A stretch of 64,000 bases of DNA from an uncultured Nitrospiraceae bacterium. Lineage in GTDB: Bacteria > Nitrospirota > Thermodesulfovibrionia > Thermodesulfovibrionales > UBA6898. Every line of letters starts with the position of its first letter. The first letter of the stretch is position 1. The stretch is taken from NCBI GenBank assembly GCA_963811165.1, contig CAWEQH010000001.1, positions 480,001 through 544,000 on the forward strand, given 5' to 3'. Of the stretch, positions 21,324 to 58,649 are shown one piece after another. Under the pieces are notes generated by a model. It worked only from the letters and a program-made list of their open reading frames with translations, had not been told where the DNA came from and did not search any database. A program made the position numbers and the translations under genes.

Positions 21324-21881
21324 TTACACGACTTTGTTCTTTATCTCATTCAAGGCCGAACCCAGATTGTGCCTGAGAACGGACAGGACCTGGGGCGCAT
21401 TAATGGGAATATTTTCCAGATCGGCCCTGATCTCCCTGGTATCGAAGGAAAGCGGCTTCATATCTTTATCATGATCATAGTCAAAGGTGAAATCTATTTC
21501 CGGGTTCCCGGCGATCAATACCAAGAGCGTTTCTGTGATATCACCCAGAGGTTTCATATCGATGTGAGCCGGTCTGAATTGGGCAGTGACTATCGTGCCC
21601 GTCCCCAACGCCGACTCTATCGTGATATCACCCCCCGTTTCCCTGGCCGATTGAGCGAGAAGGGAAAGACCGAGACCGACGCTCCTTGTCGTGCGCGAGG
21701 TAAAGAAAGGGTCGAGCGCCTTTTTCACAAGGTCTGCCGCCATCCCTTTCCCATTGTCCTTTATCTCGACGACGAAACTATTTTCATCCCTGCGATCGAC
21801 CAGCCTTATTCTAATGAGTGTCGCGCCCGCAGTGATCGAATTTTCCGCGATATCGAGTAGGTGAAGGGATATATCTTCCAT
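21324..21881 (-). CDS. HATPase_c (histidine-kinase-like ATPase) of hyd/hnd-associated regulatory clusters
   Basis: MEDISLHLLDIAENS, DNGKGM, DPFFTSRTTRSVGLGL, HID.KPLGD. Confidence 0.85.
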   Translation of the reverse strand: MEDISLHLLDIAENSITAGATLIRIRLVDRRDENSFVVEIKDNGKGMAADLVKKALDPFFTSRTTRSVGLGLSLLAQSARETGGDITIESALGTGTIVTAQFRPAHIDMKPLGDITETLLVLIAGNPEIDFTFDYDHDKDMKPLSFDTREIRADLENIPINAPQVLSVLRHNLGSALNEIKNKVV

Positions 21882-21887
21882 GGCTTC

Positions 21888-22628
21888 TCAGAAGGCGACC
21901 TTTCTGCCGCCGGCGCCCTTTAGGGCAAGCCGCAGTTCTTCAAAGGTCGAGTGCTGCATGAAGAGGCTTGTTGTTCTCTTCCCAATATCCTCCAGCCTGT
22001 GTGCGTCCGACGAGGAGATCCAGGGCAGATTCCGGTACGATGAGAATTTTATTCTCGCTTCACCGGCGCTTGTCCTGCACGATATTTCAAGCGCGTCGAA
22101 CCTAAGTTCCTGCGGGATGAACCCAAGCTGGCCTATGATCCCGTATCCTTCACGGTCGATATGGCTTGCCACGGCGAGGCCGTTAAAACTGTGGATAAGA
22201 TCGACCACGCGGTCGACCGAAAGACCCGTTGCCCCTATCAGGAGCCTCTTGTTGAAGCCCAGGACCTCATCAACCTCATTCACCACGACTTGCATGCCGA
22301 AGGTGTCCTCATCGTTTTCGCCGGGCTGCAGATTGTCATAAATGACCTCCTGCATTTTAAATGCGTCCTCTATATTTCCGAAGAGGCCGAGGATATGGAC
22401 CTCCTCAGAGGAGTTTATTTCCATCCCGGCAACCACCTGTATGCCTTTTTTCAAGGCAAGGTCTCTCGTGACGGAGACGTTTTCGGCGGAATTGTGGTCG
22501 CATATGGCGATGATGTTTATTCCCAGCGAAGCGGCTTTTTCGACGATGTCCCGCGGTGTCATCGACAGCTCCGCGCAGGGCGAGAGGCAGGTATGGATGT
22601 GCAGGTCTGCGATGAATTCTACCGGCAT
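21888..22628 (-). CDS. PHP-family phosphoesterase
   Basis: DLHIHTCLSPC, CDHN, EEVH, SHIDR, SSDAH. Confidence 0.9.
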   Translation of the reverse strand: MPVEFIADLHIHTCLSPCAELSMTPRDIVEKAASLGINIIAICDHNSAENVSVTRDLALKKGIQVVAGMEINSSEEVHILGLFGNIEDAFKMQEVIYDNLQPGENDEDTFGMQVVVNEVDEVLGFNKRLLIGATGLSVDRVVDLIHSFNGLAVASHIDREGYGIIGQLGFIPQELRFDALEISCRTSAGEARIKFSSYRNLPWISSSDAHRLEDIGKRTTSLFMQHSTFEELRLALKGAGGRKVAF

Positions 22629-22960
22629 CTCAGGCCGAGGGTATAAAGCCTTCCGACGAGTTCAAAGGCCGCAAGAGGACTCGTCATGACCGGAACGTTT
22701 TCAGCCGACGCCTTCTTTAGTGTGTCTTCTGCCGGCACCCTGTTTTTGACGAGGATGATCCCGGCGAGGCCCTTAAGAGACGCGACGGCGACGATGTTGA
22801 GATGGGACTGGAAGGTCACCCAGACGGATCCTGCCTCCGCGTTTGCGATGACATCCGACAGCATGTCGCTCACATAGCCGCCTGTCACCTCCCGTGTCAG
22901 GTCGGTCCCGGGCGTCTTCACTTCAAGGGAAAGGTTTTCTATAAGGTCACACAGTTTCAT
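22619..22960 (-). CDS. DRTGG/HPr-kinase N-terminal-like domain protein
   Basis: GGYVSDMLSDVIANA..VWVT.Q.H.NIVAVA. Confidence 0.85.
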   Translation of the reverse strand: MKLCDLIENLSLEVKTPGTDLTREVTGGYVSDMLSDVIANAEAGSVWVTFQSHLNIVAVASLKGLAGIILVKNRVPAEDTLKKASAENVPVMTSPLAAFELVGRLYTLGLRCR

Positions 22961-23030
22961 AATCCCCCCGCGCGCATATTTTTGACGATGAATCCCAGGT
23001 GCCCGCAATACTTCGAGAACACTTCCCCTC

Positions 23031-23477
23031 TCATGACGTTTGCGGCGGAGGCCCTGCCAGATAAATTATAAACTCCAGGGTCGTCCCCTCGCCTGCCGCC
23101 GACGTTATCGTCAGCTTGTCCACGTTTTTTTTTATGTTCGGCAGGCCCATGCCTGAACCGAACCCCATCTCCCTTATATAGTCAGGCGCCGTAGAATATC
23201 CTTCCCTCATCGCGAGTTCGATATCGGGGATGCCGGGGCCCATGTCCTGAAAGATAACCTTTACCGCTTCCGGCGTGACCGAATAATGCATGATCCCTGC
23301 AACTGCGTAAATAATGGCATTCATCTCCGCCTCAAAGGCCGCAATCGATGCCCTTCTGATTATCTCCGGAGGAATCCCCATATTTTCAAGGACCCCTTTT
23401 AGGTTGCCCGAGGCCGATCCGGCATTTGTGAAATCCTTACCGGTCAGAAAAAAGACTCCATCCGCATTCTGGATCAT
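23031..23477 (-). CDS. Anti-sigma-factor-type Ser/Thr kinase (RsbT/RsbW-like)
   Basis: EAEMN, D.GPGIPDIELAMREGYSTA, GFGSGMGLPN. Confidence 0.88.
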   Translation of the reverse strand: MIQNADGVFFLTGKDFTNAGSASGNLKGVLENMGIPPEIIRRASIAAFEAEMNAIIYAVAGIMHYSVTPEAVKVIFQDMGPGIPDIELAMREGYSTAPDYIREMGFGSGMGLPNIKKNVDKLTITSAAGEGTTLEFIIYLAGPPPQTS

Positions 23478-23830
23478 GATGTTCCCTCGGGCCTGCTTCG
23501 CATCCCCTTCTCGTAAAGCCTGCCGCAGACGTCGAACATCGATAACCCCGTGGCGAGGAGGGGTATATTCTTTCTCTCCGCCATCGCGACCGTCTCGGCG
23601 TCAGGCCTTTTCCCCTGGATGAATACTATCGCCCTGACTTCGGCCACGTCTGCTGTCCTGATTACCTGCGCATTCGTCAGCCCGGTGATCAGCAGAGAAT
23701 GAGTAATGGAAAAGGCGAGCACATCGCTCATGAGGTCCGCGCAATATGCCCTCTTTATCTCCCTGTTCATGTCCTTTTTTCTTGTGAGAATCAGTGCATC
23801 GAGTATGTCTCTGATCTCTCCTATTGTCAT
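23474..23830 (-). CDS. DRTGG domain protein
   Basis: CADLMSDVL..LLITGLTN.QVIRTA..GK.P. Confidence 0.85.
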   Translation of the reverse strand: MTIGEIRDILDALILTRKKDMNREIKRAYCADLMSDVLAFSITHSLLITGLTNAQVIRTADVAEVRAIVFIQGKRPDAETVAMAERKNIPLLATGLSMFDVCGRLYEKGMRSRPEGTS

Positions 23831-23851: not shown

Positions 23852-26323
23852 TCAGCCCTTTACCGCTTCAATTTTTACCGTATCTCTAAAGGGTGTCCCA
23901 TTTTCAGAAGGACAGGTGAGGGCATTGACCCTGCCGTGAGGGAAATGCATCGACGTAAAGATGGCCCCTGAAGGGACCGCATCGGAGATCCTTGCCTTAA
24001 GGTATACGGCCCCGCGTCTTGAAGATACCTTCACGTGGCTGTTGTCGGTAACTCCGTACTTCCCGGCCTCTTCTTCGTTGATCTCAAGGAAAGCCTCGGA
24101 AACAACAAGGTCGAGGGCCTTTGACCGCGTCGACATCGTGCCGGAATGCTGCAGTACGTCCCTGGTGACGAGGTGCAGCGGATACTCCCCATCTGCCTCT
24201 TCTCCGGGGCTATAAGAGACCGGCTGAAAAATCCTCCTGTCGGACTCTGCGGGGAGCGCCTGAACCGTATTTCTTATGTCGGCAGACACGTCGTCAATAG
24301 TCCTGAATACTATTTCCTTGCCCATCGACAGGGAGAGGTTTCTCAGTATCTGCCAGTCAGGCATGGACTGCCCGGTCGCATCTACCATCCTCTGCAATTT
24401 CTGGGTCACCCCCTCTGCGTTGGTAAACGTACCTTCCTTTTCCGCCCAGCTTGATGCCGGAAGGACCACATGTGCAAACTTCGCGGTCTCCGTCATCGCA
24501 ATGTCCTGAACGATGACAAGTTCAAGAGACTTCAGGGCCCCTATTATCTTAGAACTGTTGGGGAACGCCGAAACGGGATCTTCCCCCATAATGTAGAGGG
24601 CGTGGAGGGAGCCGGGCTTATAAAGCATATCGAACACGTTTTTGCCCACGGCGGTCCCCGCATCGGGTCTTACCCCCATTGTATAAAGGCCAAACGTATT
24701 TGAGTATTCTGCGGGTATCTGGAGTGCATCGGCCTCTTCGCCAAGAAGGGTGATCAGATTGGCGGCCGCCAGGACCAGGTCGGCCCCTTTTGTGTTTTCA
24801 GACAGTCCGACGGTGAAAGAGATCATCCTGTCCTTTGCCGTCGCGATTTTTTCTGCTGTGGCTCCCAGTTCTTCCAGGGAGATCCCGGTCAGTTTTGATG
24901 TGCTTTCGAGTGTGTAATCATTAAGCGCTTTTTCGAATTCCGAGAAGCCCGGTATCTTCGATACCAGCGCCCTGTTGTACAGTCCCTTGTCCATGATGAT
25001 CTTCATCAGCCCGTTCAGTAAGGCAACCGAGGTGCCCTGCCTCATCTTCAGATGAGAGGAACTGTGTCTCGTCAGTTTCGTTTCTCTGCTGTCGGCCACG
25101 ATAAGATGAGACCCCTCCCTTTTTGCCTGCAGGATGTTCAGGCCGTATACCGGATGGGTGACGCTGATATCGGACTCGATGATGAAAATTACTTCTTTGC
25201 CGAGCGGAGCCTTCATGGCGATCGGATGGGACTTCAACCCCAATACCTTATCGAGTACAGCCTGGACCTTCGCATATCCGAAGGCTAAAGAGGAGTCCAT
25301 GTTGCTTGAGCCCACGACGTTCAGCATGAATTTCCGGAGCATGTAGTTGTCTTCGTTGGTGCACCGGTGGGAGCCGAGGGCCCCGACGGAATTGCTGCCG
25401 TGGGCCTTGATGATATTTGACAGGTTTTCGCTTATATAATTCAACGCCTCATCCCATGTTGCGGAAACGAGAACGCCTTCTTTACGGATCATGGGGGTCT
25501 TCAGCCGGTTTTCGCTGTAGATATAATCGATGCCGAACCTGCCCCTGCCGCAGAGGTTGCCTTCGCTGCGTCCGTTGTCTTCCTTCGCACGAGACCTGAG
25601 AACTTTCCCCTCCCTCAGCCCGAGCGTCAGGGTACAGCCGCAGCCGCAGAAAGGACATATCGTGTCTTTTTCTTCGAGGAACCAGGCGCGCGCCTGGAAC
25701 TTGACCGGCTTCGACAGAAGCGCGCCGGTAGGACAGATGTCGATGCATTGACCGCAGTAATCGCATTCCAGTATCTCGCCGAAGGCCGGTTTGACTACAG
25801 TCGAAAACCCTCTCCCGATAAGCCCCAGTGCGCCGCGCCCCTGGTGCTCCGCGCAGATCCTTACGCATTTGCCGCAAAGGATACACCTGTTTGCGGTCAG
25901 CTCTACGAGAGGACCTCTGACGTCGGGCGGAGCCTCTTTGCGGTGGCGTATGAACCGCCCTTCGGGCTTGCCGTATTCATAAGCCAGGTCCTGCAAATCA
26001 CATTCCCCGGCCTTGTCGCAGATAGGACAGTCGAGCGGGATGATGGATCAGAAGAAGCTCCAGCACGGTCTGACGGGCCTTCCTCAGTTTCGGGGTATCG
26101 GTCTTTATCGTCATGCCCGGCGCCACGGGCGTCGAGCATGCGGCAAACAGCCTGGGCTGGCCCTTCCAGCCTCGACAACACAGAGTCTGCAGCCGCCGTA
26201 CGGCCTGAGCCTCTTGTCGTAACACAGATTGGGGATTCTTATGTCGTTTTGCTGTGCGGCCTTGAGGATAGTAGTGCCTTCTTCTACCGATATTTTTTTA
26301 TCGTTTATCGTCAGCTCTATCAT
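23852..26323 (-). CDS. NuoG/FdhF-fold Fe-S subunit (HydA/BfuA position) without H-cluster; frameshifts near 26170 and 26037
   Basis: Reassembled: MIELTIN..IPNLC..GGCRLC..AC [2Fe-2S]; HHPLDCPICDKAGECDLQ; CILCGKCVRIC/CDYCGQCIDIC; CPFCGCGC..C; Mo-bisPGD fold but DSSLAFGY where FDH has Cys/Sec; ATGA overlap with the HydB-like gene. Confidence 0.85.
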
Positions 26324-28191
26324 TTCGTATCTCCCTTCTTTGTCTCTCCTTCCGCAGTTGTGCCGACGAGTTCGGAAGGGTCTCCTTCGAAACCGGCGGG
26401 CAGGATCCTTATCGACTTGAATTTGCAGGCCTCGTAGCAGGTCCTGCAATGAAGGCAGAGCTCCTGGATGATCTTGTGAGGCTGTTTCTTTTCTCCCATG
26501 ATCGCTTTCGACGGGCATGCCCTCAGACAGGCGCCGCATCCTTTGCAGAGCTTTTCGTCTATCCAGAAGGTGGTCAGGTTGCGGCAGACCCCTGCCTTGC
26601 ACCATTTGTCTTTTATGTGCGATTCGTATTCATCCTTGAAGTATTTGATTGTGGTGAGCACCGGGTTCGGGGCGGTCTGGCCGAGACCGCAAAGTGAGGT
26701 GGCTATAATGTCCCTGCCGAGATCGAGAAGCGTATCTATATCGGACTCTTTGCCTTTGCCTTCCGTGATGTCGGTGAGCATGTCAAGGAGTATCTTTGTG
26801 CCGACTCTGCAGGGCGTGCACTTTCCGCAGGATTCATCAGCGGTAAATTCAAGGAAGAACTTCGCGGTGCCGACCATGCAGGTGTTATCGTCCATGACGA
26901 CCATTCCGCCCGAACCTACGATCGCCCCGGTTGCGACGATATCTTCATAAGTAACAGGCGTGTCGAGCAGATGCTCCGGGATACAGCCGCCTGAGGGACC
27001 GCCGAGCTGGACGGCCTTGAATTTTCTCCCTTTCCTGATGCCGCCGCCTATATCATAGATTATTGTCCTAAGCGGTATCCCCATAGGGACCTCGACGAGT
27101 CCGACGTTGTTTATCGCGCCTGTAAGCGCGAAGACCTTCGTCCCCGCGCTCTTTTCGGTGCCTAGGCTCCTGTACCAGGCCGAGCCTTGAAGGATGATAG
27201 GGGATATCTGCGCAAGTGTCTCGACGTTGTTCAGCACCGACGGTTTGTCCCATAGCCCCTTTACCGCAGGGAAGGGCGGTCTCGGTCTGGGCATGCCGCG
27301 CTTTCCCTCGAGAGAACGCATTAGCGCCGTCTCCTCGCCGCAGACAAAGGCCCCTGCGCCAAGATATATCTCGAGATGGAAATCAAATCCTGTATCCAGT
27401 ATGTTATGTCCGAGCAGTCCTGCTTCGGTGGCCTGGTCTATCGCCAGCTGAAGGCGCTTGACAGCCAGAGGATATTCCGCCCTGACATATATATAGCCGT
27501 GATGCGCACCTATCGCCTTTGCGCCTATTATCATGCCCTCGATTACCGAATGGGGGTCGGCCTCCATGACCGACCTGTCCATGAACGCCCCGGGATCTCC
27601 CTCATCTCCGTTACAGAGCATGTATTTAACGTCCGACTTGACCTTCGATGCGAACTCCCATTTAAGGCCGGTGGGGAAGCCTGCGCCTCCTCTCCCTCTC
27701 AATCCAGAGTCCTTCATGACCTTGACGATATCTTCAGGGGTCATCTGGGTAAGGGCTTTTGCGACTGCCTGGTATCCGTCCCTGGATATGTATTCCTCTA
27801 TCTTTTCAGGGTCTATGAGTCCTTTGTTTCTTAATACCCTCAGGACCTGGTGCTTGAAAAACGGGATGTCCTTCATCCTCGGAATCGCGGTCTTTTTTTC
27901 AGGCTCCTTGAACATCAGCTTTTCGTAGGGCCTGCCTTTCAGGAAATGTTCTTCGACCAGCAGAGGAACATCTTCGACCGTTATCTTCTGGTAAAAGACC
28001 TCGTCAGGATAGACCGCCATCACAGGACCTTCAGCGCAATACCCATTGCAGCCGGTCAGAACGAGCCGTATTTCTTCATCGAGGCCTCTTTTTTTCAGTT
28101 CCTGCTGGATCGCCTCCTTGACATTGGCGGTGCCGCTGGCAACACAACCCGTGCCTGCACATAACATTACATTTGCACGAACCTTTTCCAT
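26320..28191 (-). CDS. HydB/HndC/BfuB-type FMN/NADH-binding subunit
   Basis: N-terminal thioredoxin-like [2Fe-2S], [53 protein letters not shown]-terminal 2x[4Fe-4S]. Confidence 0.93.
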   Translation of the reverse strand: MEKVRANVMLCAGTGCVASGTANVKEAIQQELKKRGLDEEIRLVLTGCNGYCAEGPVMAVYPDEVFYQKITVEDVPLLVEEHFLKGRPYEKLMFKEPEKKTAIPRMKDIPFFKHQVLRVLRNKGLIDPEKIEEYISRDGYQAVAKALTQMTPEDIVKVMKDSGLRGRGGAGFPTGLKWEFASKVKSDVKYMLCNGDEGDPGAFMDRSVMEADPHSVIEGMIIGAKAIGAHHGYIYVRAEYPLAVKRLQLAIDQATEAGLLGHNILDTGFDFHLEIYLGAGAFVCGEETALMRSLEGKRGMPRPRPPFPAVKGLWDKPSVLNNVETLAQISPIILQGSAWYRSLGTEKSAGTKVFALTGAINNVGLVEVPMGIPLRTIIYDIGGGIRKGRKFKAVQLGGPSGGCIPEHLLDTPVTYEDIVATGAIVGSGGMVVMDDNTCMVGTAKFFLEFTADESCGKCTPCRVGTKILLDMLTDITEGKGKESDIDTLLDLGRDIIATSLCGLGQTAPNPVLTTIKYFKDEYESHIKDKWCKAGVCRNLTTFWIDEKLCKGCGACLRACPSKAIMGEKKQPHKIIQELCLHCRTCYEACKFKSIRILPAGFEGDPSELVGTTAEGETKKGDTK

Positions 28192-28225
28192 CTATGTCCT
28201 CCGTTTTTTCAGTTTCATTGTCACT

Positions 28226-28610
28226 TTAGTATGTCGACTCGCATCCTGCCACAAGCGCATACTTTTCCACCGGATTTCCGCCTATGATATGTTCCCTGAA
28301 AATCTCCCTGATCTTTTCGTCAGTGAGGTCGCAGTATTTCACCGGCGGGTGGTTCATCAACTCGACCGTTGCAAGGGGTTCTTTCGCACAGAGTCCCGCG
28401 CAGCCCGAGGTAGTCACGATGACGTCGGTTGCGTTTGCTTTTGCTGATCTCGTCCATGAGTGCGGACATTACCGCCCTCGCCCCTGCGGCGATACCGCAG
28501 GTGCCCATATGTACGGTCACCTTCGCCCTGTAGCCGCCTTCACGAAGGGTGAAATCGGCACGATGCTTTTCCTTGATTTTTTTTAGGTCATCTATCGTCA
28601 ATCTCGGCAT
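28226..28610 (-). CDS. HydD/HndB-like thioredoxin-fold [2Fe-2S] subunit (frameshift ~28437)
   Basis: VHMGTCGIAAGA + TSGCAGLCAKEP; frames join on removing one A. Confidence 0.85.
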
Positions 28611-28611
28611 G

Positions 28612-29538
28612 TTAAGCCTCCTTTTCGGCCATTTCTTCCGCCTCTTCGGCCGGAGCCGACTCTAAGACGGTGGTATCAAACTGACTGATTTTTTCGATTG
28701 CCTTTTTGGGCGTCATTGCGCCGTAAGTCTCCTGGTCTATTACCATGACCGGGGCGAGGCCGCATGCGCCGAGGCATCTCACCGCCTCGAGAGAGAACTT
28801 CCTGTCCTCGGTGGTTTCTCCTACATTTATCTTCAGCGTATCCTGGATCTTCTTGATGACTCTCTCTATGCCTTTTACGTAACAGGCGGTGCCGAGGCAG
28901 ACCCTGATGTTGTGGTCCCCTCTGGGCTTCATCGTAAAGAAAGAGTAAAAGGAGACAACACTGTGTACCTCCGCCTCAGGTATGTTCAGCCCTTTCGCTA
29001 TCCTTTTTTGCACTACCGGAGGGAGATACCCCACGATCTCCTGCGCGCGCTGAAGGACCGGTATCAGAGATCCGGGCTTCGTCTTTAATTGGGCGATTAC
29101 CCTGTCCAGTTCTGCGGCCATGGCAGGTGGGAATTCTTCGGTCTTTTTTACCTCCTCCGGTTTCCTGCCCCTTGTCCATTCAACCGCCCGTTCGGTAACG
29201 TCAAGCAGGACCGAAGGCGTGAATGGTTTCGGCACATAGTCTATGATGCCCAGTTCGAGCGCCTCTTTTATGGTGTCCTGAGAGGGATATCCTGTGATAA
29301 TGACGATCCCGACAGAGGGCTTCATCTTTTTTATCCACCTGATAAGGGTGATGCCGTCCACCTCAGGCATCTTCAGGTCGGTGAAGACAAGGTCATAATT
29401 CTCCTGACCTATTTTCATGATCGCTTCTCTTCCCCCGAGCGCCCCTTCCACACTATATCCTTCGCTCTTAAGCACCCTTTCGGCGCTTTTGATGACAACA
29501 AGCTCGTCGTCGACGATCAATATTTTGGGTTCAGCCAT
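28612..29538 (-). CDS. Receiver domain fused to HydC/HndA/NuoE [2Fe-2S] subunit
   Basis: REC: VDDE, TDLKMP, ITGY, KPF; NuoE: LIPVLQRAQEIVGYLP, CLGTAC, CLGACGLAP; GAGGAGG RBS before ATG 29538. Confidence 0.9.
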   Translation of the reverse strand: MAEPKILIVDDELVVIKSAERVLKSEGYSVEGALGGREAIMKIGQENYDLVFTDLKMPEVDGITLIRWIKKMKPSVGIVIITGYPSQDTIKEALELGIIDYVPKPFTPSVLLDVTERAVEWTRGRKPEEVKKTEEFPPAMAAELDRVIAQLKTKPGSLIPVLQRAQEIVGYLPPVVQKRIAKGLNIPEAEVHSVVSFYSFFTMKPRGDHNIRVCLGTACYVKGIERVIKKIQDTLKINVGETTEDRKFSLEAVRCLGACGLAPVMVIDQETYGAMTPKKAIEKISQFDTTVLESAPAEEAEEMAEKEA

Positions 29539-29570: not shown

Positions 29571-30338
29571 TTAAATTTTTAAAGCCTCGACGCGTGCCAG
29601 CCAGAGGAGCCAGCCCTCGCATAGGTTATCCCGTACCAGGGCGCTCATCGCAGTGTTTGCCTGATGGTTAAGTTCGACTACCCTTCCCGTCATCGGCGAG
29701 ATGAGGTCCTCTGTCTGCCCTCCGCCTGAGAGTATCTTTGCGAAGGGCTCCCCTGCAGCGACCATTTTGATGGTGTCCGGCAGGTCTATATACATCAGCT
29801 GTCCGCCGAGGAGCCAGTATCTGACGTCGCAGCCGATCTCCCATAGCCCGTTCTTCGATGGTCTGGCCCAGGTCCCCTCTTTATAAAAAATGACCGGGTT
29901 TTCCGTGTCCCTTAAGGACACTATCTCGTTTCTGAACTCGTCGATAAAGGCCTTCCGGAGTATCCAGCCCTTATTGTCGAAGACTTTTTTCGCAACGTTC
30001 ATCATGAACTCGGGGGTGAAGGGTTTTTCTATGAATTCGAAGGCCCCGAGTTTTACGGATTCCTTTGCGTCTTCAAGGGTGGGATACCCGGTGATGATCA
30101 CCACGTCCAGTTTTGGCTGAACTACCTTTGCCTCCCTAAGCACCGTGATGCCATTGATGTCCGGAAGCCGGATGTCGGAAATCAGGAGGTCAAATTCCTC
30201 GTTAGAGATCCTTTTGATCGCATCTTCCCCTCTGTCAGTGGTGATAATGTTGTACCCTTCAGCACCGAGGATCCTTTTGCAACTCAGCGTCACAACAGGG
30301 TCGTCATCAAGTACTAATATCTTCCCCTTGTTTTCCAT
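29571..30338 (-). CDS. Receiver domain fused to a GcvH-like (lipoyl-carrier fold) domain lacking the lipoyl-Lys
   Basis: REC: LDDD, SDIRLP, ITGY, KPF; C-terminal TWAR..IG.D..IDLP..GEPF..SPMTGRVVELN..EGWL. Confidence 0.75.
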   Translation of the reverse strand: MENKGKILVLDDDPVVTLSCKRILGAEGYNIITTDRGEDAIKRISNEEFDLLISDIRLPDINGITVLREAKVVQPKLDVVIITGYPTLEDAKESVKLGAFEFIEKPFTPEFMMNVAKKVFDNKGWILRKAFIDEFRNEIVSLRDTENPVIFYKEGTWARPSKNGLWEIGCDVRYWLLGGQLMYIDLPDTIKMVAAGEPFAKILSGGGQTEDLISPMTGRVVELNHQANTAMSALVRDNLCEGWLLWLARVEALKI

Positions 30339-30373: not shown

Positions 30374-30389
30374 AGCAATAAGGATACCA
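30374..30389 (-). promoter_or_regulatory. sigma54 (-24/-12) promoter of the receiver/HydBC/NuoG-like operon
   Basis: TGGTAT-CCTTA-TTGCT (GG-N10-GC) about 35 nt upstream of ATG 30338. Confidence 0.7.
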
Positions 30390-31720: not shown

Positions 31721-31723
31721 CCT

Positions 31724-33789: not shown

Positions 33790-33793
33790 CGTC

Positions 33794-37485: not shown

Positions 37486-37492
37486 GGCTACT

Positions 37493-40153: not shown

Positions 40154-40224
40154 GTAATCTCCTTCACCGATGAATTGTTAAGCTTGCGGCGTATCCGCTG
40201 GTTTTGAGGTTGCAGAATTGATTG

Positions 40225-45635: not shown

Positions 45636-45992
45636 ATGCCGTCGGAATATCTGCCGATCTTGATTTTTTTCATGGTCGCCACGGCCTTCGGGCTAGGTGC
45701 CCTCGTCCTCGGCGAGCTTTTCCGGATAAAGAGACCCTATCCCGAGAAGCTCATGCCTTACGAATCGGGGAACGCGCCGGTCGGCGAGCCCCGCATGAGA
45801 TTTTCAGTAAAGTTTTATATTATCGCAATGCTGTTTGTCGTGTTCGACGTTGAAGCGGTCTTCCTTTATCCATGGGCGGTTGTATTCGACAAGATCGGCA
45901 TGTATGCCTTTATTGAGATGATTGTTTTTATCATAATTCTCCTTGCGGGTTATGTATATGCGTGGAAGAAAGGGGCGTTTATTTGGGATTAA
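45636..45992 (+). CDS. nuoA: NADH-quinone oxidoreductase subunit A
   Basis: [21 protein letters not shown]. Confidence 0.95.
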
Positions 45993-46510
45993 TTCAGGGG
46001 TTAGAGACAGTAACGCTTGTTGAGGTCGAAGAAGGCACGAGAATCATGTCTCCCAATATTATCATTACCTCCATGGATAAACTGATAAACTGGGGGAGAC
46101 GGTCGTCCCTATGGCCGATGACCTTCGGGCTTGCCTGCTGTGCCATTGAAATGATGGCGACGTACGCCAGTCATAACGACCTCGACAGGATGGGGATAAT
46201 CCCGAGGGGTTCCCCGAGGCAGTCTGATTTTATGTTCGTCGCCGGCACTGTTACAAAAAAAATGTCCCAGATCGTCAGAAGGGTCTATGATCAGATGCCC
46301 GAGCCCAGATACGTGATCTCGGTGGGAAGCTGCGCCAACAGCGGAGGCATTTTCAATACCTACAGTACGGTGCAGGGATGCGACACCTTTTTACCGATCG
46401 ATGTATATATCCCGGGTTGTCCGCCGAGGCCCGAGGCCTTTATCGACGGGATAATCAAGCTCCAAGAAAAGATCAAGGCGGAACAGTTCCACTGGAGCCG
46501 CTGGCGTTAA
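45962..46510 (+). CDS. nuoB: NADH-quinone oxidoreductase subunit B (start uncertain)
   Basis: [22 protein letters not shown]. Confidence 0.95.
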
Positions 46511-46591
46511 GGCGGGAGAGCGGCGTTAGCCGGCAGTTCGTAGTCATAGCCTGAAGTTAAATTTTGAGAGAGGAACGCGGACTTAGGGGTT

Positions 46592-47126
46592 ATGGAAGCA
46601 TTACAGGTCGCCGAAAAGATAAAGGAAAGATTTCCTGAAGAGGTTCTTGACGTAAAGGAATTCAGGGGACAGGTGTCCGTTACCCTGAAAAAAGAGAGGA
46701 TACTCGACATCTGCAGATTCCTACACGACGACCCCGAACTATTCTTCGATTACCTTGTAGATGTCTGCGGGGTCGATTATCTCGGGAAGAATGAAAAGAG
46801 GTTCGAGGTCGTATACCATCTCTATTCGATAAAACACCGTCATGCCCTCAGATTAAAGGCAGAAGTGGCCGATGACAAACCATCCATAGATTCAGTCATG
46901 CCCGTATGGATCGGAGCGAACTGGCACGAGCGGGAGGCATATGACATGTACGGTATTGTCTTTAATGGGCATCCTGACCTTAGGAGAGTACTCATGCCGG
47001 AAGACTGGGAAGGGTATCCGCTTGAGAAAAGACTATCCGTTACAGGGCCCGGAAAAGGAGTGGTCCGGCTTCATCGAGATTCTCGATAAAGCAAAGAGGT
47101 ACAGGGAATTCGAGTGGCACGGATGA
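46592..47126 (+). CDS. nuoC: NADH-quinone oxidoreductase subunit C (frameshift ~47020)
   Basis: ANWHEREAYDMYG..F.GHPDLRR...YPL/RKDYPL. Confidence 0.92.
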
Positions 47127-47162
47127 GCACTGAGGATAATAAGGGGCAGAATTTTCATAAAT

Positions 47163-48362
47163 ATGGAAGAGATGGAATCTAAAGAAAAGACGTTCGAGAC
47201 TCAAGAGCTGACGATCAGCATGGGCCCCCAGCACCCGGCGACGCACGGTGTTCTGAGGCTGTTGCTCGACCTCGACGGCGAAAATGTGGTCAAGTGTACC
47301 CCCTATGTCGGTTATCTCCATCGGGGCGTTGAGAAACTCGGGGAAAACAGGACCTATTTTGCTGCCCTTCCTCTTAGCGACCGGCTTGATTACATATCTT
47401 CCATGAACAACAATGTCGGCTACGTCAACGCTGTGGAAAAGCTCTTCGGTATCGAAGCTCCGGAAAGGGCCAAGTTCATAAGAACAATGGTTGCCGAGAT
47501 GGGGAGGATATCTAGCCATATCATCTGGCTAGGAACGCATGTCTTGGACATCGGGGCCACCACTCCTTTCTTGCATGCGATGGCCCAGAGAGAACGCATT
47601 CTCGACCTTTTCGAGATGCTCTGCGGAGCGAGGCTTACCGTGAGTTATCCGCGGGTCGGCGGTGTCCGCAATGATATTTCTCAGGAGTTTCTCGATGCCC
47701 TTTATGAATTTGCTCTTGAGTTCCCTTCGCATATGGACGATTATGAGACCCTTGTCACTGAAAACAGGATATGGAAGGACAGGACGGTAGGTATCGGTGT
47801 CATCTCGGCCGAAGAGGCGATAAACTGGGGTCTTACAGGCGGTATGCTGAGGGGCTCCGGAGTTGATTATGACATAAGGAGATATGCTCCTTATGATGCA
47901 TATGACAAGGTCGAGTTCGATGTGCCTGTCGGCAAGAAAGGCGACTGTTACGACAGGTATCTTGTCAGGGTGGGAGAGATGAGGCAGGCAAACAGGATAA
48001 TGAAACAGTGTATAGAGAAACTGCCTGCGGGGCCTAGTCATGGCGGATGCGCCTAAATTGACCCTGCCGCCCAAGGACATGATCCTCAAGGACATGGAGC
48101 ATCTTATCCACCAATTTATCCTGATTACGAAAGGCCCGTCCGTTGCCGAAGGCGAGGTTTACATGTGCGACCGAGGTGCCCAAGGGAGAACTCGGCTTTT
48201 ATTTTGTGAGCGACGGAACGGGGAAGCCTTACAGGATGAGGGTGAGGGCGCCTTCATTCGTCCATGCTTCGGTGCTTCCGAGGTTGTGAGGGAGGGATGA
48301 TCGCAGACGTTATAGCGAACATAGGGACGATAGATATTGTCCTTGGAGAATGTGACAGGTAA
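47163..48362 (+). CDS. nuoD: NADH-quinone oxidoreductase subunit D (several frameshifts 48030-48300)
   Basis: [22 protein letters not shown]; fragments [20 protein letters not shown]. Confidence 0.92.
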
Positions 48363-48381
48363 AAAAGGTCAAAAGATAAAA

Positions 48382-48850
48382 ATGTTTAATGAAGCTGCAA
48401 GGAAAGAACTGGAAGAGATAAGGCTGAAATACCCGACGTGCAAGGGCAGCGCTCCTGCCGGCCCTTTATGTGGCCCAGAGGGAGTTCGGCTGGTCTGTCT
48501 CCGGACGCATATGAGACGGTGTCGGACCTGCTCGGCAGTGCCGAAGGCGATCGCCCGGGGTGTAGGGACTTTCTATGCGATGTACAAACATAAGCCTGCC
48601 GGCAGAAACAGTCGTGCAACTCTGCACGAATGTCTCATGCATGATCCTGGGCGCCGAAAGACTTGTGGATTTCCTGAAGGACAAATACGGGCTTGAACCC
48701 GGGGGGACGACCCAGGACGGAAGGTTTTCTCTTGTGATTATGGAGTGTATCGGTGCATGCGGCACTGCGCCGGCGATGCTTGTGAATGATGATTTTTATG
48801 AAAATCTGACTGAAAAATACATAGAAGAAATACTTGGTAGATATAAATAG
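48382..48850 (+). CDS. nuoE: NADH-quinone oxidoreductase subunit E (frameshifted)
   Basis: GTFYAMY, CTNVSC, ECIGACGTAP. Confidence 0.88.
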
Positions 48851-48855
48851 ACGAC

Positions 48856-50118
48856 ATGGGAAAGGTACTCCTTAAAAATATAGAAAATCCAAACTCTGCG
48901 GATATAAACGAATATATAAAGGCAGGCGGCTACAGGAGTCTTCCGAAGGCGCTCGGTATGGTGCCCAAGGAGTTGATAGAAGAGGTCAAGAAGGCCGGTT
49001 TGAGGGGCCGGGGCGGAGCAGGGTTCCCGGTCGCCATGAAGTGGACCTTTGCCTCTGCAGACCCCAAATTCCCAAAGTACCTTCTGTGCAATGCAGACGA
49101 GGGTGAGCCGGGAACCTTTAAGGACAGGCCGATACTCGAAAAGAACCCCCATCTTCTTATCGAGGGGATGGCTATTTCAGGGTTTGCGCTCAGCGCTGAA
49201 TACGGTTATATATATCTCAGGGGCGAATATCCTGCCGCAAAGCATATCTTGAAAAGGCGATCAGCCAAGCCTATGAAAAAGGTTTCCTCGGGGACAATGT
49301 TGCGGGCAAGGGAGTGAAATTTCACCTTGCGGTACATCAGGGCGCCGGGGCTTACATATGCGGCGAGGAGACGGCGTTGATCGAGTCCCTCGAAGGCGAC
49401 AAGGGGCAGCCGAGGATCAAGCCCCCTTTCCCGGTGAATGTAGGTGTATTTTGCGAAACCGACTGTCGTCAATAATGTCGAGACCCTTTCGAATTTGCCG
49501 TATATCATCGAGATCGGCGGGGAGGCGTATGCGAAGATAGGAAGCCCCGACTGTCCCGGACCCAAGATCTATTGCGTCTGCGGACATGTGGAAAAGCCCG
49601 GAGTGTATGAGCTGCCAATGGGGACCAATCTTAAGGATATTATCTACACGCATTGCGGCGGGATAAAGGGAGGCAAAAAGTTGAAGGCGGTCATCCCCGG
49701 CGGGATATCGACGCCGGTGCTTCCCCCGGACAAGATAGATTGTCCCATGGACTTCGTAAACATGCCGAAACACGGCAGCATGCTGGGCTCCGGCGCCGTG
49801 ATTGTCATGGATGAGACGGTCTGCCTCGTCAAGGTCTGCTATAGGGCACTCAAATTTTTCGAGCATGAATCATGCGGCAAGTGTTCGCCGTGTCGTGAAG
49901 GGACAGGATGGTTGAGGAAGATATTGGGAAGGATCGATAGCGGAGAGGGCACGGAAGGAGACATTGATCTTTTGCTGTCCATCTCAGCGAATATGCTCGG
50001 GAAGACCTTCTGTCCTCTAGGGGACGGGGCAGCATCTGTTGTACAGAATTTCATTAAACATTTCAGGTCCGAATTCGAGGATCATATCAGAAATAAGGCC
50101 TGCACAGTAGCAGGATAA
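48856..50118 (+). CDS. nuoF: NADH-quinone oxidoreductase subunit F (frameshifts ~49255, ~49450)
   Basis: [49 protein letters not shown]. Confidence 0.92.
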
Positions 50119-50128
50119 CGGACAATCG

Positions 50129-52711
50129 ATGATAAAAGTAACGATCAACGGAAAAGAGATAACCCTTGAAAAAGCGGTCACGGTACTTGAGGCTGCCAGG
50201 TCAGCCGGGATCAAGATTCCGACGCTCTGCTATCATGAGCAGCTTGAAAAGTACGGCGGCTGCAGATTATGCCTTGTGGAGGTCGAGAAGATGCCGCGTC
50301 TTCAGACCGCTTGTACCCTGATGGTCACAGACGGCATGACCGTCAGGACTGAAACCGAGGCGATCACGAATGTAAGAAGGAGCATACTCGAATTTCTCCT
50401 TATCAACCATCCGCTTGACTGCCCTTACTGCGACAAGGCCGGCGAATGCGAACTTCAGGACCTGGTCGAAAAGTACGGTCCTGCAACGAGCCGCTTCAAA
50501 GAGGCCAAGAGAAAAGTGCCTGAAAGCCTGGAAGACCCTGTCATTGTCAGGAATATGGAGAGATGCATAGTTTGCACAAGATGTGTGAGGATGTGCGAAG
50601 GCGTTCAGGGTGCGGCGGCCATAGCCGTCATAGACAGAGGCGGCCACTCCCATATCGAACCCTTCTCGGGCGGCAAGTTCGATTGTGAATACTGCGGCAA
50701 TTGCGTTTCTGTCTGTCCGGTGGGAGCCATAATGTCGAGGCTCCACAGACACAGTTACAGGCCATGGCAGATGGTAAATGAAACTGAAACAATATGCCCT
50801 TACTGCGGGGTCGGTTGTACCCTCATAGTGCAGGTCCGCGATGATGTCATAAAAAGGGTCGTCCCCCGGATAGGTACGGCAGTCAATAACGGACTTCTCT
50901 GCTCCCGCGGACGGTTCGGCTACGAGTTCGTCGGACATAAGGACAGACTCACTTCGCCGCTGATTAGAAAGAACGGCGTCCTTGAAGAGGCGACATGGGA
51001 AGAGGCCATCAGCCTCGTTGCCAAAAAACTTGGAGAGATAAAGGGAAGTTTCGGAGGCTCTTCGATCGCGGGGATAGCCTCGCCGAGGTGCACAAACGAG
51101 GACAATTACGTTTTCCAGAAGTTCATGAGGGTCACCCTCGGGACTAACAATATAGACAGCACCGCCAGGACAGGGTATGCAGGGGCGCAGGGCTTTATCG
51201 AGAATATCTTCGGGCAAGGGTCTACGGCAAATCTTATCCCCGGTATTTCAAAATCCGATGCCGTCTTTGTCGCCGGAGGCGATCCGACTGCGATAAACCC
51301 TATACTGGGGCTTCAGATAAGGGCCTGTTCAAGAAAGGGAGGAAGTATTCTCACGGTGGGCCACATAAAAGGGCTCAGGCATTATACGCCCGTGGAATTG
51401 AGGCCTTCACTCTTTTCGGAAGCTGTCTTGCTCGAGGGGATCGTATCGGCCCTGAAGGACAAGAAAGGTCTTCCAGGAGCGAATCAGATCCTGGAGGAAA
51501 AGATAAAAGATATCGCTGTCTCCTCCGCAGATGTCGTTAAAAGTTGCGGCGTTTCGGAAAAAGACTTTACCGCATTCATCGACAAGCTCTCGGGCTCCTC
51601 TAACGCGTCGGTAGTTATCGGCAAAGAAATCGTCCAAAGCGACGGCGGTAATTATAAGCTCCTGCTTTTGGCGGCGATTACGTATCTCATAAACGGCAGG
51701 GTCTATCTGCTTTCCGAGCGTGCGAACGAACAGGGGCTTTTAGACATGGGGTGCGCGCCGGACCTTCTGCCTGGATACAGGCCGCTCGGATACGCCGAAT
51801 TCAGAAAAAAGTATGAAATAGTATGGAAGACCCCGGTCCCGGAGCGGCCCGGTCTTACGATATTTGAAATGATCGGGGCCGCAAAGAGCGGATCCTTAAA
51901 GGCGATGTACATAATGGGCGAGAACCCGGTGTTCAATCTGCCGAACTCTAAAGAAGTAGAGGCCGCGCTCAAGAAGGTCGATTTCCTCGTCGTGCAGGAC
52001 ATATTCCTTACCGAAAGCGCCAAACTGGCCGATGTGGTGCTTCCTGCCCTCAGCTGGTCGGAAAAGAACGGCACTTACACAAACATGGAAAGAAGGATCC
52101 AGCGCCTTAGAAAAGCGGTGGGCCGCGAAGGCATGGAGGACTGGAGAATCATTTCGGAGATTTCAAAAAATATGGCCTCCAAGATGCACTATGCGGACGC
52201 AGAGGACGTTTTTTCCGAGATAAGTAAGGTCTCTCCTCTGCACAGGGACCTCTCCTATGGCGAGATAGGAAAAGAAACCGCAATATATCCTTATAAGGGA
52301 GAGCCTCTCAGGGGCGTTACAGGAGAGATCCGGGCAGAGAAGAGCAGTTCTGTCGCAGTGGCGGGTAAACTCTATCTGAGACTCGAAAGACCTTTGTTCC
52401 ACTCAGGGACACTCAGCAGAAAGGCTCAGGCGTTAGTAAATATATATGCCGCGGCAGTGGCGAGGATAAGTCCGGCCACGGCAGACAGGCTAGCCCTAAA
52501 CGAAGGCGATGTCATTAAAATATCGACGGTGCCCGGGTCCCTGGACCTCCCGGTGGCTGTCGATAAGGATGTTGATGATTCTGTGGTAATGCTGACGAAC
52601 AATTTTGAGGGCAAGGGGGCATTCAGCCTGATAGAATATTCGATCGACCCTGTTACAAAGGCCCCTGTCATCGACGGAAATGTCGTAACGGTGGAGAAGG
52701 TGGGCAGATGA
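50129..52711 (+). CDS. nuoG: NADH-quinone oxidoreductase subunit G
   Basis: GGCRLC, HPLDCPYCDKAGEC, 2x[4Fe-4S], CPYCGVGC; operon position. Confidence 0.93.
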   Translation: MIKVTINGKEITLEKAVTVLEAARSAGIKIPTLCYHEQLEKYGGCRLCLVEVEKMPRLQTACTLMVTDGMTVRTETEAITNVRRSILEFLLINHPLDCPYCDKAGECELQDLVEKYGPATSRFKEAKRKVPESLEDPVIVRNMERCIVCTRCVRMCEGVQGAAAIAVIDRGGHSHIEPFSGGKFDCEYCGNCVSVCPVGAIMSRLHRHSYRPWQMVNETETICPYCGVGCTLIVQVRDDVIKRVVPRIGTAVNNGLLCSRGRFGYEFVGHKDRLTSPLIRKNGVLEEATWEEAISLVAKKLGEIKGSFGGSSIAGIASPRCTNEDNYVFQKFMRVTLGTNNIDSTARTGYAGAQGFIENIFGQGSTANLIPGISKSDAVFVAGGDPTAINPILGLQIRACSRKGGSILTVGHIKGLRHYTPVELRPSLFSEAVLLEGIVSALKDKKGLPGANQILEEKIKDIAVSSADVVKSCGVSEKDFTAFIDKLSGSSNASVVIGKEIVQSDGGNYKLLLLAAITYLINGRVYLLSERANEQGLLDMGCAPDLLPGYRPLGYAEFRKKYEIVWKTPVPERPGLTIFEMIGAAKSGSLKAMYIMGENPVFNLPNSKEVEAALKKVDFLVVQDIFLTESAKLADVVLPALSWSEKNGTYTNMERRIQRLRKAVGREGMEDWRIISEISKNMASKMHYADAEDVFSEISKVSPLHRDLSYGEIGKETAIYPYKGEPLRGVTGEIRAEKSSSVAVAGKLYLRLERPLFHSGTLSRKAQALVNIYAAAVARISPATADRLALNEGDVIKISTVPGSLDLPVAVDKDVDDSVVMLTNNFEGKGAFSLIEYSIDPVTKAPVIDGNVVTVEKVGR

Positions 52712-53763
52712 ACGATATCCTTAATGCCATGACTACGTCGGGATTTCTTGCCACGGCAATTAATATCGTTTTCATTCTCCTGAAGATCGCAGCCGTCATC
52801 GCGGTGGGTCTCCTCCATGTCGCTTACGCAACCTATTTTGAGCGCAAAGTCATGGCACATATGCAGGTAAGGATAGGTCCAAGGGAAGTTGGTCCATTGG
52901 GTTTGTTCCAGCCCTTCGCAGACGGAATAAAGCTTTTTTTCAAGGAGGACATCATCCCCCAAAATGCGGACAAACCGTTGTTTTATCTTGCTCCTGTGAT
53001 ATTCTTTGTCTCTGCGCTTACTTCCCTGTCTGTGCTGCCTTTTTTTGACGGGTTCGTGATAGGCAACATAAACATAGGACTCCTTTTCCTCTTTGCAATG
53101 TCTTCACTTGGCGCATACGGTATCGTTCTTTCGGGATGGTCATCGAACTCTAAGTATGCTTTTTTGGGGGGGCTCAGGTCTGCATCCCAGGTGATAAGTT
53201 ATGAAATCTCCATGGGGCTTAGCCTGGTAGGCGTCATGATGATGTCAGGGTCGCTGAACCTGATGGACATCGTGAGGGCTCAGCACCATTATCCTTTGGG
53301 CATGTTTGCAGTACCACAGTTCCTTGGCTTCTTTGTATTCATAGTTGCGGCCTTTGCGGAGACGAACCGGCTCCCCTTCGACCTTCCTGAGGCGGAAAGC
53401 GAGCTCGTTGCCGGCTATTTCACCGAATACAGCGGCTTCCGTTTTGCCATGTTCTTCCTCGGCGAATACACGGGCATGCTGGTGATGTCATCTATCGCGG
53501 CCCTCTGCTTTTTGGGGGGGTGGGCACTTCCGGATTTCATTACGGCCAGCTTACCTGTTTTTCTTGCCAAGGCCCTCGGGCTCTTTTGGTTCCTTTTTAA
53601 AGTGTATGCCTTTATGTTCCTCTATTACTGGGTTAGATCGACACTGCCGAGATACCGCTACGACCAGCTTATGGCGATCGGATGGAAATTGCTTATCCCT
53701 CTGGCGCTCGCAAACATCGTAATTACGGGGCTGGCAAAAATGTGGTTTAAGGGATTACTATGA
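52708..53763 (+). CDS. nuoH: NADH-quinone oxidoreductase subunit H
   Basis: ERKV.A.MQ.RIGP, AETNRLPFDLPEAESEL. Confidence 0.97.
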   Translation: MNDILNAMTTSGFLATAINIVFILLKIAAVIAVGLLHVAYATYFERKVMAHMQVRIGPREVGPLGLFQPFADGIKLFFKEDIIPQNADKPLFYLAPVIFFVSALTSLSVLPFFDGFVIGNINIGLLFLFAMSSLGAYGIVLSGWSSNSKYAFLGGLRSASQVISYEISMGLSLVGVMMMSGSLNLMDIVRAQHHYPLGMFAVPQFLGFFVFIVAAFAETNRLPFDLPEAESELVAGYFTEYSGFRFAMFFLGEYTGMLVMSSIAALCFLGGWALPDFITASLPVFLAKALGLFWFLFKVYAFMFLYYWVRSTLPRYRYDQLMAIGWKLLIPLALANIVITGLAKMWFKGLL

Positions 53764-54320
53764 AATCGGGAAAATTAATAAGGACGATATTCTTTGTAGA
53801 GATTTTAAAAGGTCTTGCCTTTACCTTAAAGACTATGTTGTTCACCAAGCCTGTCACGAGGCGGTATCCAAAAGTCGCTGTGCCGGCACTTCCGGGCTTC
53901 AGGGGACTGCACGCCCTTGCAAAAAACGCTGAGGGAAAGTTGAAGTGCGTCGGCTGCGGTCTCTGCGGCGCCTATTGTCCCTCAAAATGTATCCATATCT
54001 ATACATCTGAGGGCGAAGATCATGCCAAGGTCGTCGACAGGTATGAGATAGATGTGCTCAGGTGCATCTTCTGCGGATTCTGCGTAGAAGCGTGTCCCTT
54101 CGGGGCGATCACCCTGAGCGAGCACTATGAATATTCGAATTATAAGAGAGAAGATTTCTATATGACAAAGGACAAGCTCCTTGGGAACTGGGATAAATAC
54201 TTTGCGGGGCCGAAGGGCGAACGTTATTTTAAAGATTTCTGGCAGCCCAAGTCTGAAAATTTTACCGGAAGCGAAGGACAGGCGATGTTCAGCAAAGTGA
54301 AAGTGAAGGAGAAGAGATAG
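53760..54320 (+). CDS. nuoI: NADH-quinone oxidoreductase subunit I
   Basis: FRG.H, CVGCGLC..YCP, CIFCGFCVEACP. Confidence 0.96.
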   Translation: MKSGKLIRTIFFVEILKGLAFTLKTMLFTKPVTRRYPKVAVPALPGFRGLHALAKNAEGKLKCVGCGLCGAYCPSKCIHIYTSEGEDHAKVVDRYEIDVLRCIFCGFCVEACPFGAITLSEHYEYSNYKREDFYMTKDKLLGNWDKYFAGPKGERYFKDFWQPKSENFTGSEGQAMFSKVKVKEKR

Positions 54321-54323
54321 GAA

Positions 54324-54836: not shown

Positions 54837-54839
54837 CGC

Positions 54840-55142: not shown

Positions 55143-55152
55143 AAGGAAGGAT

Positions 55153-57072: not shown

Positions 57073-57079
57073 GCATATA

Positions 57080-58618: not shown

Positions 58619-58649
58619 GCAATACGCAACCGAGTTCCAGGAGGTTCCA

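Follow-up and report, generated by a model that had tools for sequence, protein, structure and literature searches.

In this study, we analyzed an operon on the minus strand of a 64,000-nucleotide stretch of DNA (hereafter the window; positions 480,001 to 544,000 of contig CAWEQH010000001.1, assembly GCA_963811165.1) from an uncultured Nitrospiraceae bacterium, which is a sulfate-reducer-type member of the Nitrospirota. The operon encodes a four-subunit, HydABCD-type module with a NuoG-like large subunit, BfuA, and this module is most likely an alternative, bifurcating-type head for complex I, which would dock on NuoCDI in place of NuoEFG. An earlier reading of the sequence (the original prediction) had placed HydC-, HydD- and HydB-type genes before the NuoG-like gene and proposed an alternative N-module; the gene order was confirmed, and the proposal is supported as regards the Bfu core, the NuoG-like BfuA and the linkage to nuo in relatives, whereas the nuo operon of the window keeps its own NuoEFG. 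Its claim of a new system does not stand. Schut et al. (2022) predicted Nuo-Bfu, a 14-subunit bifurcating complex I in which BfuABC replaces NuoEFG and menaquinone is the third substrate, and assigned to it BfuB clades 38 and 39, the latter from Planctomycetes and Nitrospirae (PMC9304861). The Nitrospirae members of that clade may include the family of the window. What is new here is the coexistence with canonical NuoEFG, mostly as a separate operon, the fusion of a receiver domain to one subunit, and a set of relatives that makes docking testable.

The bifurcating-type core and its NuoG-like subunit

The Bfu family is defined by a BfuB with a flavin mononucleotide (FMN)/NADH domain, B1, B5, B3/B4 and the B2 ligands C438, C/T476, H525, C531 and C536, a BfuC with the C1 [2Fe-2S] cluster, and a BfuA with at least A1 and A2 (PMC9304861). 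All of these features were found in the window. BfuB has an N-terminal thioredoxin-like [2Fe-2S] domain (B5), an FMN/NADH site, B1, B2 and a C-terminal pair of [4Fe-4S] clusters (B3/B4), and its B2 ligands C438, T476, H525, C531 and C536 (A. mobile numbering) were assigned by motif and numbering, without alignment to A. mobile HydB. The three sequence features that Losey et al. (2020) give for a bifurcating beta subunit, A/E232 with M234, F367 and GGPSG (PMC7311640), appear in the window BfuB as A-F-M, an F367 equivalent and GGPSG, whereas the operon NuoF of a close relative reads T-F-K, Y and GGIST, departs from all three and lacks the ferredoxin domain (no B3/B4). Among 106 full-length BfuB proteins from the mapped loci, A-F-M was kept in 101, the Phe in 102, GGPSG in 101, and B2 and B3/B4 in 104 each. 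The C1 cluster of the receiver-fused BfuC (REC-BfuC) is represented by C214, C219, C255 and C259. Judged by sequence, the BfuB/BfuC core is a bifurcating-type Bfu. The small thioredoxin-like subunit BfuD, labelled HydD/HndB-type here, had no match in Pfam or NCBIfam. In four loci (L038, L040, L058, L066) the bfuD gene is lost and BfuB begins with a BfuD-like domain, as if two thioredoxin-like domains had recombined; in two others (L103, L104) the module is duplicated in tandem, B-A-B-A, with one BfuB of L104 degenerate.

BfuA carries the clusters A1 (N1b), A3 (His-ligated N5), A2, A4 and A5 (N7) together with a Mo-domain fold without the Cys/Sec-His pair. Its 20 Fe-S ligands do not vary in any of the 112 homologous open reading frames (ORFs, not de-duplicated by genome), the ligands of A3 (H94/C98/C101/C107) and A5 (C222/C225/C229/C257) included, which makes it a Type 3 BfuA. 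As the original prediction had it, there is neither an H-cluster nor a Mo ligand: BfuA has no H-cluster domain and so is not a [FeFe]-hydrogenase HydA, and the position of the Mo-ligand Cys/His reads G-Y, with the Cys/Sec-His motif in none of the 112. The intact BfuA of a relative (90% identical) scores 471.2 against the NuoG model TIGR01973, a marginal pass of the cut-off of 470.05 (the resident NuoG scores 504.8), and 468 against the Fdh-alpha model TIGR01591, below the cut-off of 666. In the Protein Data Bank (PDB), the best match of the N-terminal 299 amino acids (aa) is to complex I 75-kDa subunits at 240 bits, against 200 for FdsA, 181 for HydA and 174 for the NiFe HydA, and it includes HPLDCPxCD..GECDLQD and SKP..F.AR.W. 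The N5 and R-x-W motifs occur together in 108 of 112 BfuA and in 19 of 19 operon NuoG proteins; among 141 representatives of 720-1000 aa, taken from the best 150 matches listed, the N5 motif was seen in none of the 17 with the Mo Cys-His pair and in 87 of the 124 without it, both patterns having been defined after the alignment was inspected. The six motifs reported as collinear with NuoG at 50129 are present in both proteins, although a frameshift in the window copy interrupts HPLDCPxCDKAGEC.

Two trees (122 rows with FastTree, 35 rows with IQ-TREE in quick mode) both place a BfuA clade among Mo-less proteins and outside the clade of formate dehydrogenases (FDH). An exclusive BfuA and FDH clade, a grouping that would have spoken against the original prediction, was rejected (p-AU 0.026; IQ-TREE, 35 rows). 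A recent duplication of the neighboring nuoG is ruled out by the 34% identity between that NuoG and the intact relative's BfuA (over 828 columns) and by their separate clades. BfuA is best described as a NuoG-like wire, not an FDH, and as an old paralog.

Possible partners were sought in the genome, which is 95% complete. No [FeFe] H-cluster domain was found there. The two NiFe hydrogenases, one periplasmic-type and one four-gene soluble, each have their own small and partner subunits, and the Mo-domain matches are the NuoG-like genes, a Tat-type FDH-N and a Sec-FDH accompanied by C and B genes of its own, with no orphan FdhF among them. No orphan catalytic subunit turned up. It is unlikely that the module is a Type 3 Fdh-Bfu like HylCBA-FdhF2, in which BfuA would be only a wire, a separately encoded Mo/W FDH would feed A3 and formate would be the third substrate. 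Schut et al. describe such an enzyme with an A1-A5 BfuA (PMC9304861), FdsA is the top PDB match of full-length BfuA, of 40 distant loci, 12 have fdhD and 11 a GAF-domain gene (weak FlhA/NifA matches) immediately following BfuA, and comparable cassettes of other taxa apparently lie ahead of an FDH-like gene (L289, L294). However, besides the lack of an orphan FdhF, fdhD is not among the recurring neighbors in 79 closer loci, and the formate reading leaves unexplained the cassette in the nuoEFG slot of one relative (G242) and the private nuoD and nuoI of another (G381), both described below.

The same genome holds a second Bfu-like operon (C10:390-399 kb; L002:8255-17234), which adjoins nfnAB near acetyl-CoA synthase and encodes a C subunit, a 779-aa B with a C-terminal extension, a 203-aa Fe-S protein and a 673-aa NuoG-like A without the N5 motif.

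Linkage to complex I and the putative docking surface

BfuA orthologs of at least 63% identity occur in 47 of the 54 genomes of the family (hand count). Across the class, with four candidates scored per genome, matches at E 1e-165 were found in 140 of 221 genomes, among them 2 of the 26 of family f11 but none of the 15 of family f6; a 401-genome sample of the phylum gave one match outside the class, a weak one. A BfuA position was listed for 134 genomes, of which 123 also had a listed nuoD position, and in 40 of these 123, from 11 families, BfuA lies less than 25 kb from nuoD. The usual order in close relatives is nuoN to nuoA, a head-to-head kinase, a receiver, an optional sigma-54 regulator, REC-GcvH, REC-BfuC, D, B, A and the accessory genes.

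Some relatives bring the cassette closer still. It sits between nuoD and nuoE inside a nuo operon that keeps EFG (G193), or directly before nuoA and running into it (G196). In G242 it occupies the nuoEFG slot between nuoD and nuoH, its BfuA is 70% identical to that of the window's nearest relative, and searches of the genome gave neither a NuoF nor a NuoG ortholog; by gene content and order this is a Nuo-Bfu as defined by Schut et al. In G381 (L192:3422-11180) a mini-operon reads nuoD-nuoI-149-aa ORF-REC-BfuC-B-A, and the separate main nuo operon is headless (without EFG), with divergent NuoD and NuoI. A further candidate for an in-operon Nuo-Bfu (G093) was rejected, since its 589-aa gene looks like NuoE fused to NuoF and carries T-F-K and Y. 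In two loci a headless operon facing the cassette has a 247-aa TPR gene in the nuoEFG slot (L257:2184-2927, L259:3057-3800). Among metagenome loci outside the class, receiver-less C-D-B cassettes with DRTGG/PHP genes lie inside, after or opposite nuo genes (L280, L277, L286, L289, L315).

We surveyed 26 genomes that were selected because their operon is headless or shows no clear NuoG. A NuoF ortholog is absent from 21 of them, all of which have BfuA, and present in five (four displaced, one in place). Fifteen of the 21 were viewed, and in these the operon is headless or contains the cassette. An E. coli-type nuo or FDH-linked NuoF homologs are present as well in several of the 21, whereas the sole NuoF homolog of G390 at E 1e-60 is BfuB.

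NuoG contacts NuoCD and NuoI (PMC8357420). The motif C..CG[LM]C at the first cluster of NuoI is present in all 43 copies whose operon includes NuoG or BfuA as a partner and in none of six partnerless copies, all six of which have a basic residue instead; G381 has one copy of each type, the partner type beside BfuA. Taking columns conserved in EFG-bearing operons as the reference, Bfu-only genomes keep 93% of them in NuoI (15 rows) against 72% in partnerless ones (6 rows), and 95% in NuoD (15 rows) against 86% (8 rows), where the losses cluster at 288-322; for NuoC the values are 93% and 91%. This conservation fits docking of BfuA where it is the sole candidate, but it is no more than suggestive, since the partnerless set covers about four lineages.

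That narrow set is one of several points that weigh against a head for complex I. The Bfu-only genomes may have lost EFG too recently for divergence, and the position of the compared NuoI and NuoD residues at the interface with NuoG is presumed rather than computed. Headless operons can be served by nuoEFG encoded elsewhere, as the five genomes with a NuoF ortholog show; that a headless operon means no N-module is ruled out as a rule by G222, G359, G409 and G419. The window's genome has a second, E. coli-type nuo operon, and with NuoEFG in each of the two there is no headless arm. BfuA and nuoD lie on different contigs in 79 of the 123 genomes and 60-234 kb apart on one contig in four, and gene order shared among kin is not independent evidence. 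To these are added the post hoc definition of the N5 and R-x-W patterns, the fdhD genes and the full-length FdsA match named above, and the trees, in neither of which BfuA is sister to the neighboring NuoG; they disagree on the deeper order, and the 35-row tree puts BfuA on the FDH side of a 95-supported split. Finally, in five BfuB copies the flavin/NADH loop G-D-E-G-D-P-G-A-F-M-D is deleted or altered with the Fe-S ligands retained (L104:3688-5598, L185:10896-12803, L189:6910-8754, L191:6720-8594, L193:7007-8881). One of them belongs to a genome with a headless nuo (G310), and such copies are possibly flavin-less, ferredoxin-only adapters.

The insertion of nfnAB in 6 of the 79 closer loci likewise weighs on the side of a soluble redox-balancing module coupled to NfnAB and NADPH (Stn/Nfn-Bfu-like), which would lie near nuo only through shared sensor-kinase regulation. 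Many genomes without a physical link of the cassette to nuo would fit this, as would a GltD-like FAD/NADPH domain on BfuB in two loci. We consider it quite unlikely: 73 of the 79 loci have no nfnAB, BfuA lacks a GltD domain and retains a complex I-type N5 surface, and even where BfuB has the NADPH domain, BfuA would still need an outlet. In those two loci (L052:7454-14323 and L112) the GltD-like domain replaces B3/B4 and nfnAB is inserted upstream, giving an NADPH-type version with the same BfuA; a BfuB with such a domain has already been described (PMC11406978). The module shares a Bfu core and a Mo-domain-like A subunit with Nfn-Bfu/Stn and with the Type 3 Fdh-Bfu of G. acidurici, and is set apart from them by the GltD-free BfuA and by the genome without orphan FdhF. 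One apparent NiFe-Bfu (G001) was rejected, the two extra genes being NfnAB.

Docking on another complex I-like arm, either an Ehr/Hyf-like complex or the second, E. coli-type Nuo, seems very unlikely. Besides the second nuo, the genome has Rnf and an Ehr/Hyf-like operon (C1:641-648 kb), both named from sequence, and in G019 (L053:2884-18125) the cassette immediately follows an Ehr/Hyf-like operon that has the same orientation, a further point against the type-1 arm. Nevertheless, this is one Ehr-linked locus among those mapped against 40 links to type-1 nuoD, and BfuA is confined to the two genomes given above in family f11, whose best NuoD-family match is mostly only ~1e-80.

Operon layout, assembly breaks and regulators

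The features of the window are collected in Table 1. The original prediction had overlooked the receiver fused to the C subunit, the REC-GcvH-like gene and the five accessory genes after BfuA.

Table 1. Coordinates of the Bfu operon, its regulators and the neighboring nuo operon in the window.
Feature	Position	Strand	Remarks
REC-BfuC, HydC/NuoE-type gene	28612..29538	-	receiver fused to NuoE/HydC [2Fe-2S] domain
BfuD, HydD/HndB-type small thioredoxin-like subunit	28226..28610	-	3' end approximate
BfuB, HydB-type	26320..28191	-	623 aa
BfuA, NuoG-like	23852..26323	-	~822 aa when intact
REC-GcvH-like gene	29571..30338	-	upstream of REC-BfuC
Candidate sigma-54 (-24/-12) site	30375..30389	-	37 bases upstream of REC-GcvH
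DRTGG gene	23474-23830	-	accessory, downstream of BfuA
Anti-sigma-type HATPase	23031-23477	-	accessory
Second DRTGG gene	22619-22963	-	accessory
PHP gene	21888-22628	-	accessory
Second HATPase	21324-21881	-	accessory; five-gene accessory block 21324..23830
Sigma-54 response regulator	42110-43501	-	
Single receiver gene	43531-43908	-	
Membrane sensor kinase	43905-45485	-	two CxxCH-like motifs
nuoA-N	45636..60068	+	likely partner complex; NuoG 50129-52711, NuoI 53760-54320

The subunit of ~820 aa that the original prediction described is seen in close relatives, where bfuA is intact at 817-826 aa, but not as such in the window assembly, in which extra bases relative to these relatives at 26040, 26165 and 26168 leave no single open frame. 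An extra base at 28444 likewise shortens BfuD to a 96-aa frame, against 127 aa in relatives. All four bases are absent from the contigs of four out of four read sets (four runs from two studies, ~97% alike, of near relatives that are other strains than the window's), and for this reason they are most likely assembly errors. The window nuoC, nuoD, nuoE and nuoF (46592-50118) are broken by single-base frameshifts like those in BfuA, and dsrA is frameshifted by a single base (C8:231910-234154 of the same genome); these breaks point to a generally error-rich assembly. Together with the read sets they led us to reject bfuA as a real pseudogene; the Bfu module is real, conserved and, by these comparisons, intact in nature.

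The nuoA-N operon lies about 16 kb away, as originally stated, and most of the gap is filled by ~11 kb of efflux genes, a DDE transposase, pyruvate kinase and a PAS-GGDEF gene (30725-41737). This block interrupts a conserved kinase-Bfu operon and is missing from most of the relatives mapped; in close relatives without it, the regulators lead straight into the Bfu operon and the kinase stands head-to-head with nuoA at ~100 bp.

The receiver of REC-BfuC has an acid pocket, phospho-Asp54 and Lys104, and the phospho-Asp motif is kept in 104 of 108 distinct homologs. The linked sensor kinase shows two CxxCH-like motifs in 49 of 51 homologs, and we infer that it controls REC-BfuC by phosphorylation. 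The REC-GcvH-like protein of the window lacks the lipoyl-lysine motif; for this fusion, the Atlas also has clusters dominated by Ignavibacteriota. A similar sigma-54 site was found upstream in 4 of 13 relatives, and the search across the window gave 34 matches where 50 were expected, which is not above chance; we keep the site upstream of REC-GcvH as a candidate and a lead.

The accessory genes bear on where the cassette came from. DRTGG, PHP and HATPase genes flank C-D-B-A operons of [FeFe]-hydrogenases elsewhere. Outside the class, 55 metagenome loci were mapped from the best 80 listed, shorter loci being left out; the A gene has the H-cluster motif in 22 of them, and many share these accessory genes. 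The comparison suggests that the C-D-B part stems from a hydrogenase, and the cassette is likely the descendant of a bifurcating [FeFe]-hydrogenase operon whose HydA gene was exchanged for a NuoG-like one. With HydABCD/HndABCD and the NiFe-HydABCSL of A. mobile the window cassette shares the C-D-B-A order, the B2 ligands, A-F-M/F/GGPSG and the DRTGG/PHP/HATPase neighbors, and the A. mobile NiFe HydA is, like BfuA, an H-cluster-free wire. Unlike these enzymes, the window cassette has no H-cluster and no adjoining HydSL, and its BfuA is nearer to complex I 75-kDa subunits than to HydA. No HydSL was found among the recurring neighbors or scanned ORFs of the mapped loci, in which single unmatched ORFs are not all annotated.

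Energetics, known systems and significance

Characterized Bfu enzymes have NADH and ferredoxin on the same side of the reaction and reach the third substrate through BfuA (PMC9304861). As a head for complex I, the module would in the forward direction combine electrons from NADH with those from reduced ferredoxin, so that menaquinone is reduced and protons are pumped; in the backward direction, the proton gradient would drive the reduction of NAD+ together with that of ferredoxin. In analogy with the scheme of Schut et al., electrons would follow the path FMN-B1-A1-A2-A3(N5)-N6a-N2-menaquinone, with ferredoxin entering via B4/B3-B2-C1. With E' values of -280 mV for NADH, -500 mV for ferredoxin and -74 mV for menaquinone (PMC9304861), our arithmetic gives ~40 kJ per two electrons for NADH alone and, at a mean donor potential of -390 mV, ~61 kJ for NADH plus ferredoxin. 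Four protons cost ~58 kJ at an assumed 150 mV, so the combined input is enough for them, unlike NADH alone; Schut et al. made this confurcation argument in words (PMC9304861).

The original prediction had NADH oxidation by quinone driving ferredoxin reduction, or the reverse. The first direction does not fit Bfu chemistry, and the second survives only in the sense that NADH plus reduced ferredoxin interconvert with menaquinone. In that first direction the module would dock on complex I and split NADH, quinone and ferredoxin each receiving one electron (EtfABCX-like), and this can draw on predicted wiring that contains both a ferredoxin arm (B2-B3-B4) and a quinone-bound route. We regard it as very unlikely, since its net driving force by our arithmetic is ~-14 mV before any proton is pumped, and no Bfu enzyme with such stoichiometry appears in the available part of PMC9304861.

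Compared with Nuo-Bfu, the closest known proposal, the confurcating head considered here has the same BfuBC core with B1-B5 and C1 and the same Type 3 BfuA with A1-A5, and G242 has the exact operon layout. It differs in that the window cassette is a separate operon beside a nuo that keeps its non-bifurcating NuoEFG, and in the receiver on BfuC, BfuD, REC-GcvH and the hydrogenase-type accessory genes. Inputs encoded in trans have been proposed before, for NDH-1 in the form of cyanobacterial HoxEFU (PMC9414918) and in the 'docking platform' idea for the 11-subunit complex I (PMC11238625). As in these cases, the input proposed here is a diaphorase-like module whose genes stand apart from those of the membrane arm; HoxU, however, is short and serves HoxYH, whereas BfuA corresponds to a complete NuoG, and an EFG of its own is often present for the arm. 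The mycobacterial orphan response regulator Rv3143/MSMEG_2064 acts on complex I at the protein level and binds NuoD (PMC9274095); it is a free protein, while the window receiver forms one polypeptide with the [2Fe-2S] C subunit of the input module. A literature search that covered few subscription papers returned the term 'Nuo-Bfu' in one paper only, none that combined receiver domain, NuoE and bifurcating, and none that joined SfrAB, NuoG and complex I; the available part of PMC10203281, found in a search for Thermodesulfovibrionia, complex I and bifurcation, does not mention the cassette.

In cells having both heads, the module would exchange with the resident NuoEFG, and we infer that the two swap on one membrane arm. 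The benefit to the cell would be an electron input of high yield or, in the backward direction, a supply of reduced ferredoxin (and NADH) to the Wood-Ljungdahl pathway. Genes for acetyl-CoA synthase and menaquinone are present in the genome; the former occur in 207 of 221 genomes of the class and therefore do not discriminate. A wider, tentative and rather doubtful possibility is that a single complex I of the Thermodesulfovibrionia works with two exchangeable heads, NuoEFG for NADH alone and a bifurcating one for NADH and ferredoxin, between which a heme-binding sensor kinase would choose via the receiver fused to the mobile, C1-bearing subunit, switching energy yield and direction at the protein level; some lineages would have only the bifurcating head and some a flavin-less ferredoxin adapter.

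The BfuA family offers natural experiments, since some of its genomes have both heads, others have the bifurcating head alone or no head at all, and one has a private NuoD and NuoI. The soluble four-subunit module could be expressed alone, and its receiver sits on the subunit that is proposed to gate bifurcation by its movement. The finding also bears on the question of what feeds the 11-subunit complex I enzymes (PMC11238625). If the bifurcating head is real, complex I would couple ferredoxin and NADH to menaquinone, closing the energy shortfall of NADH-to-menaquinone pumping, and anaerobes would gain reduced ferredoxin by reverse electron flow.

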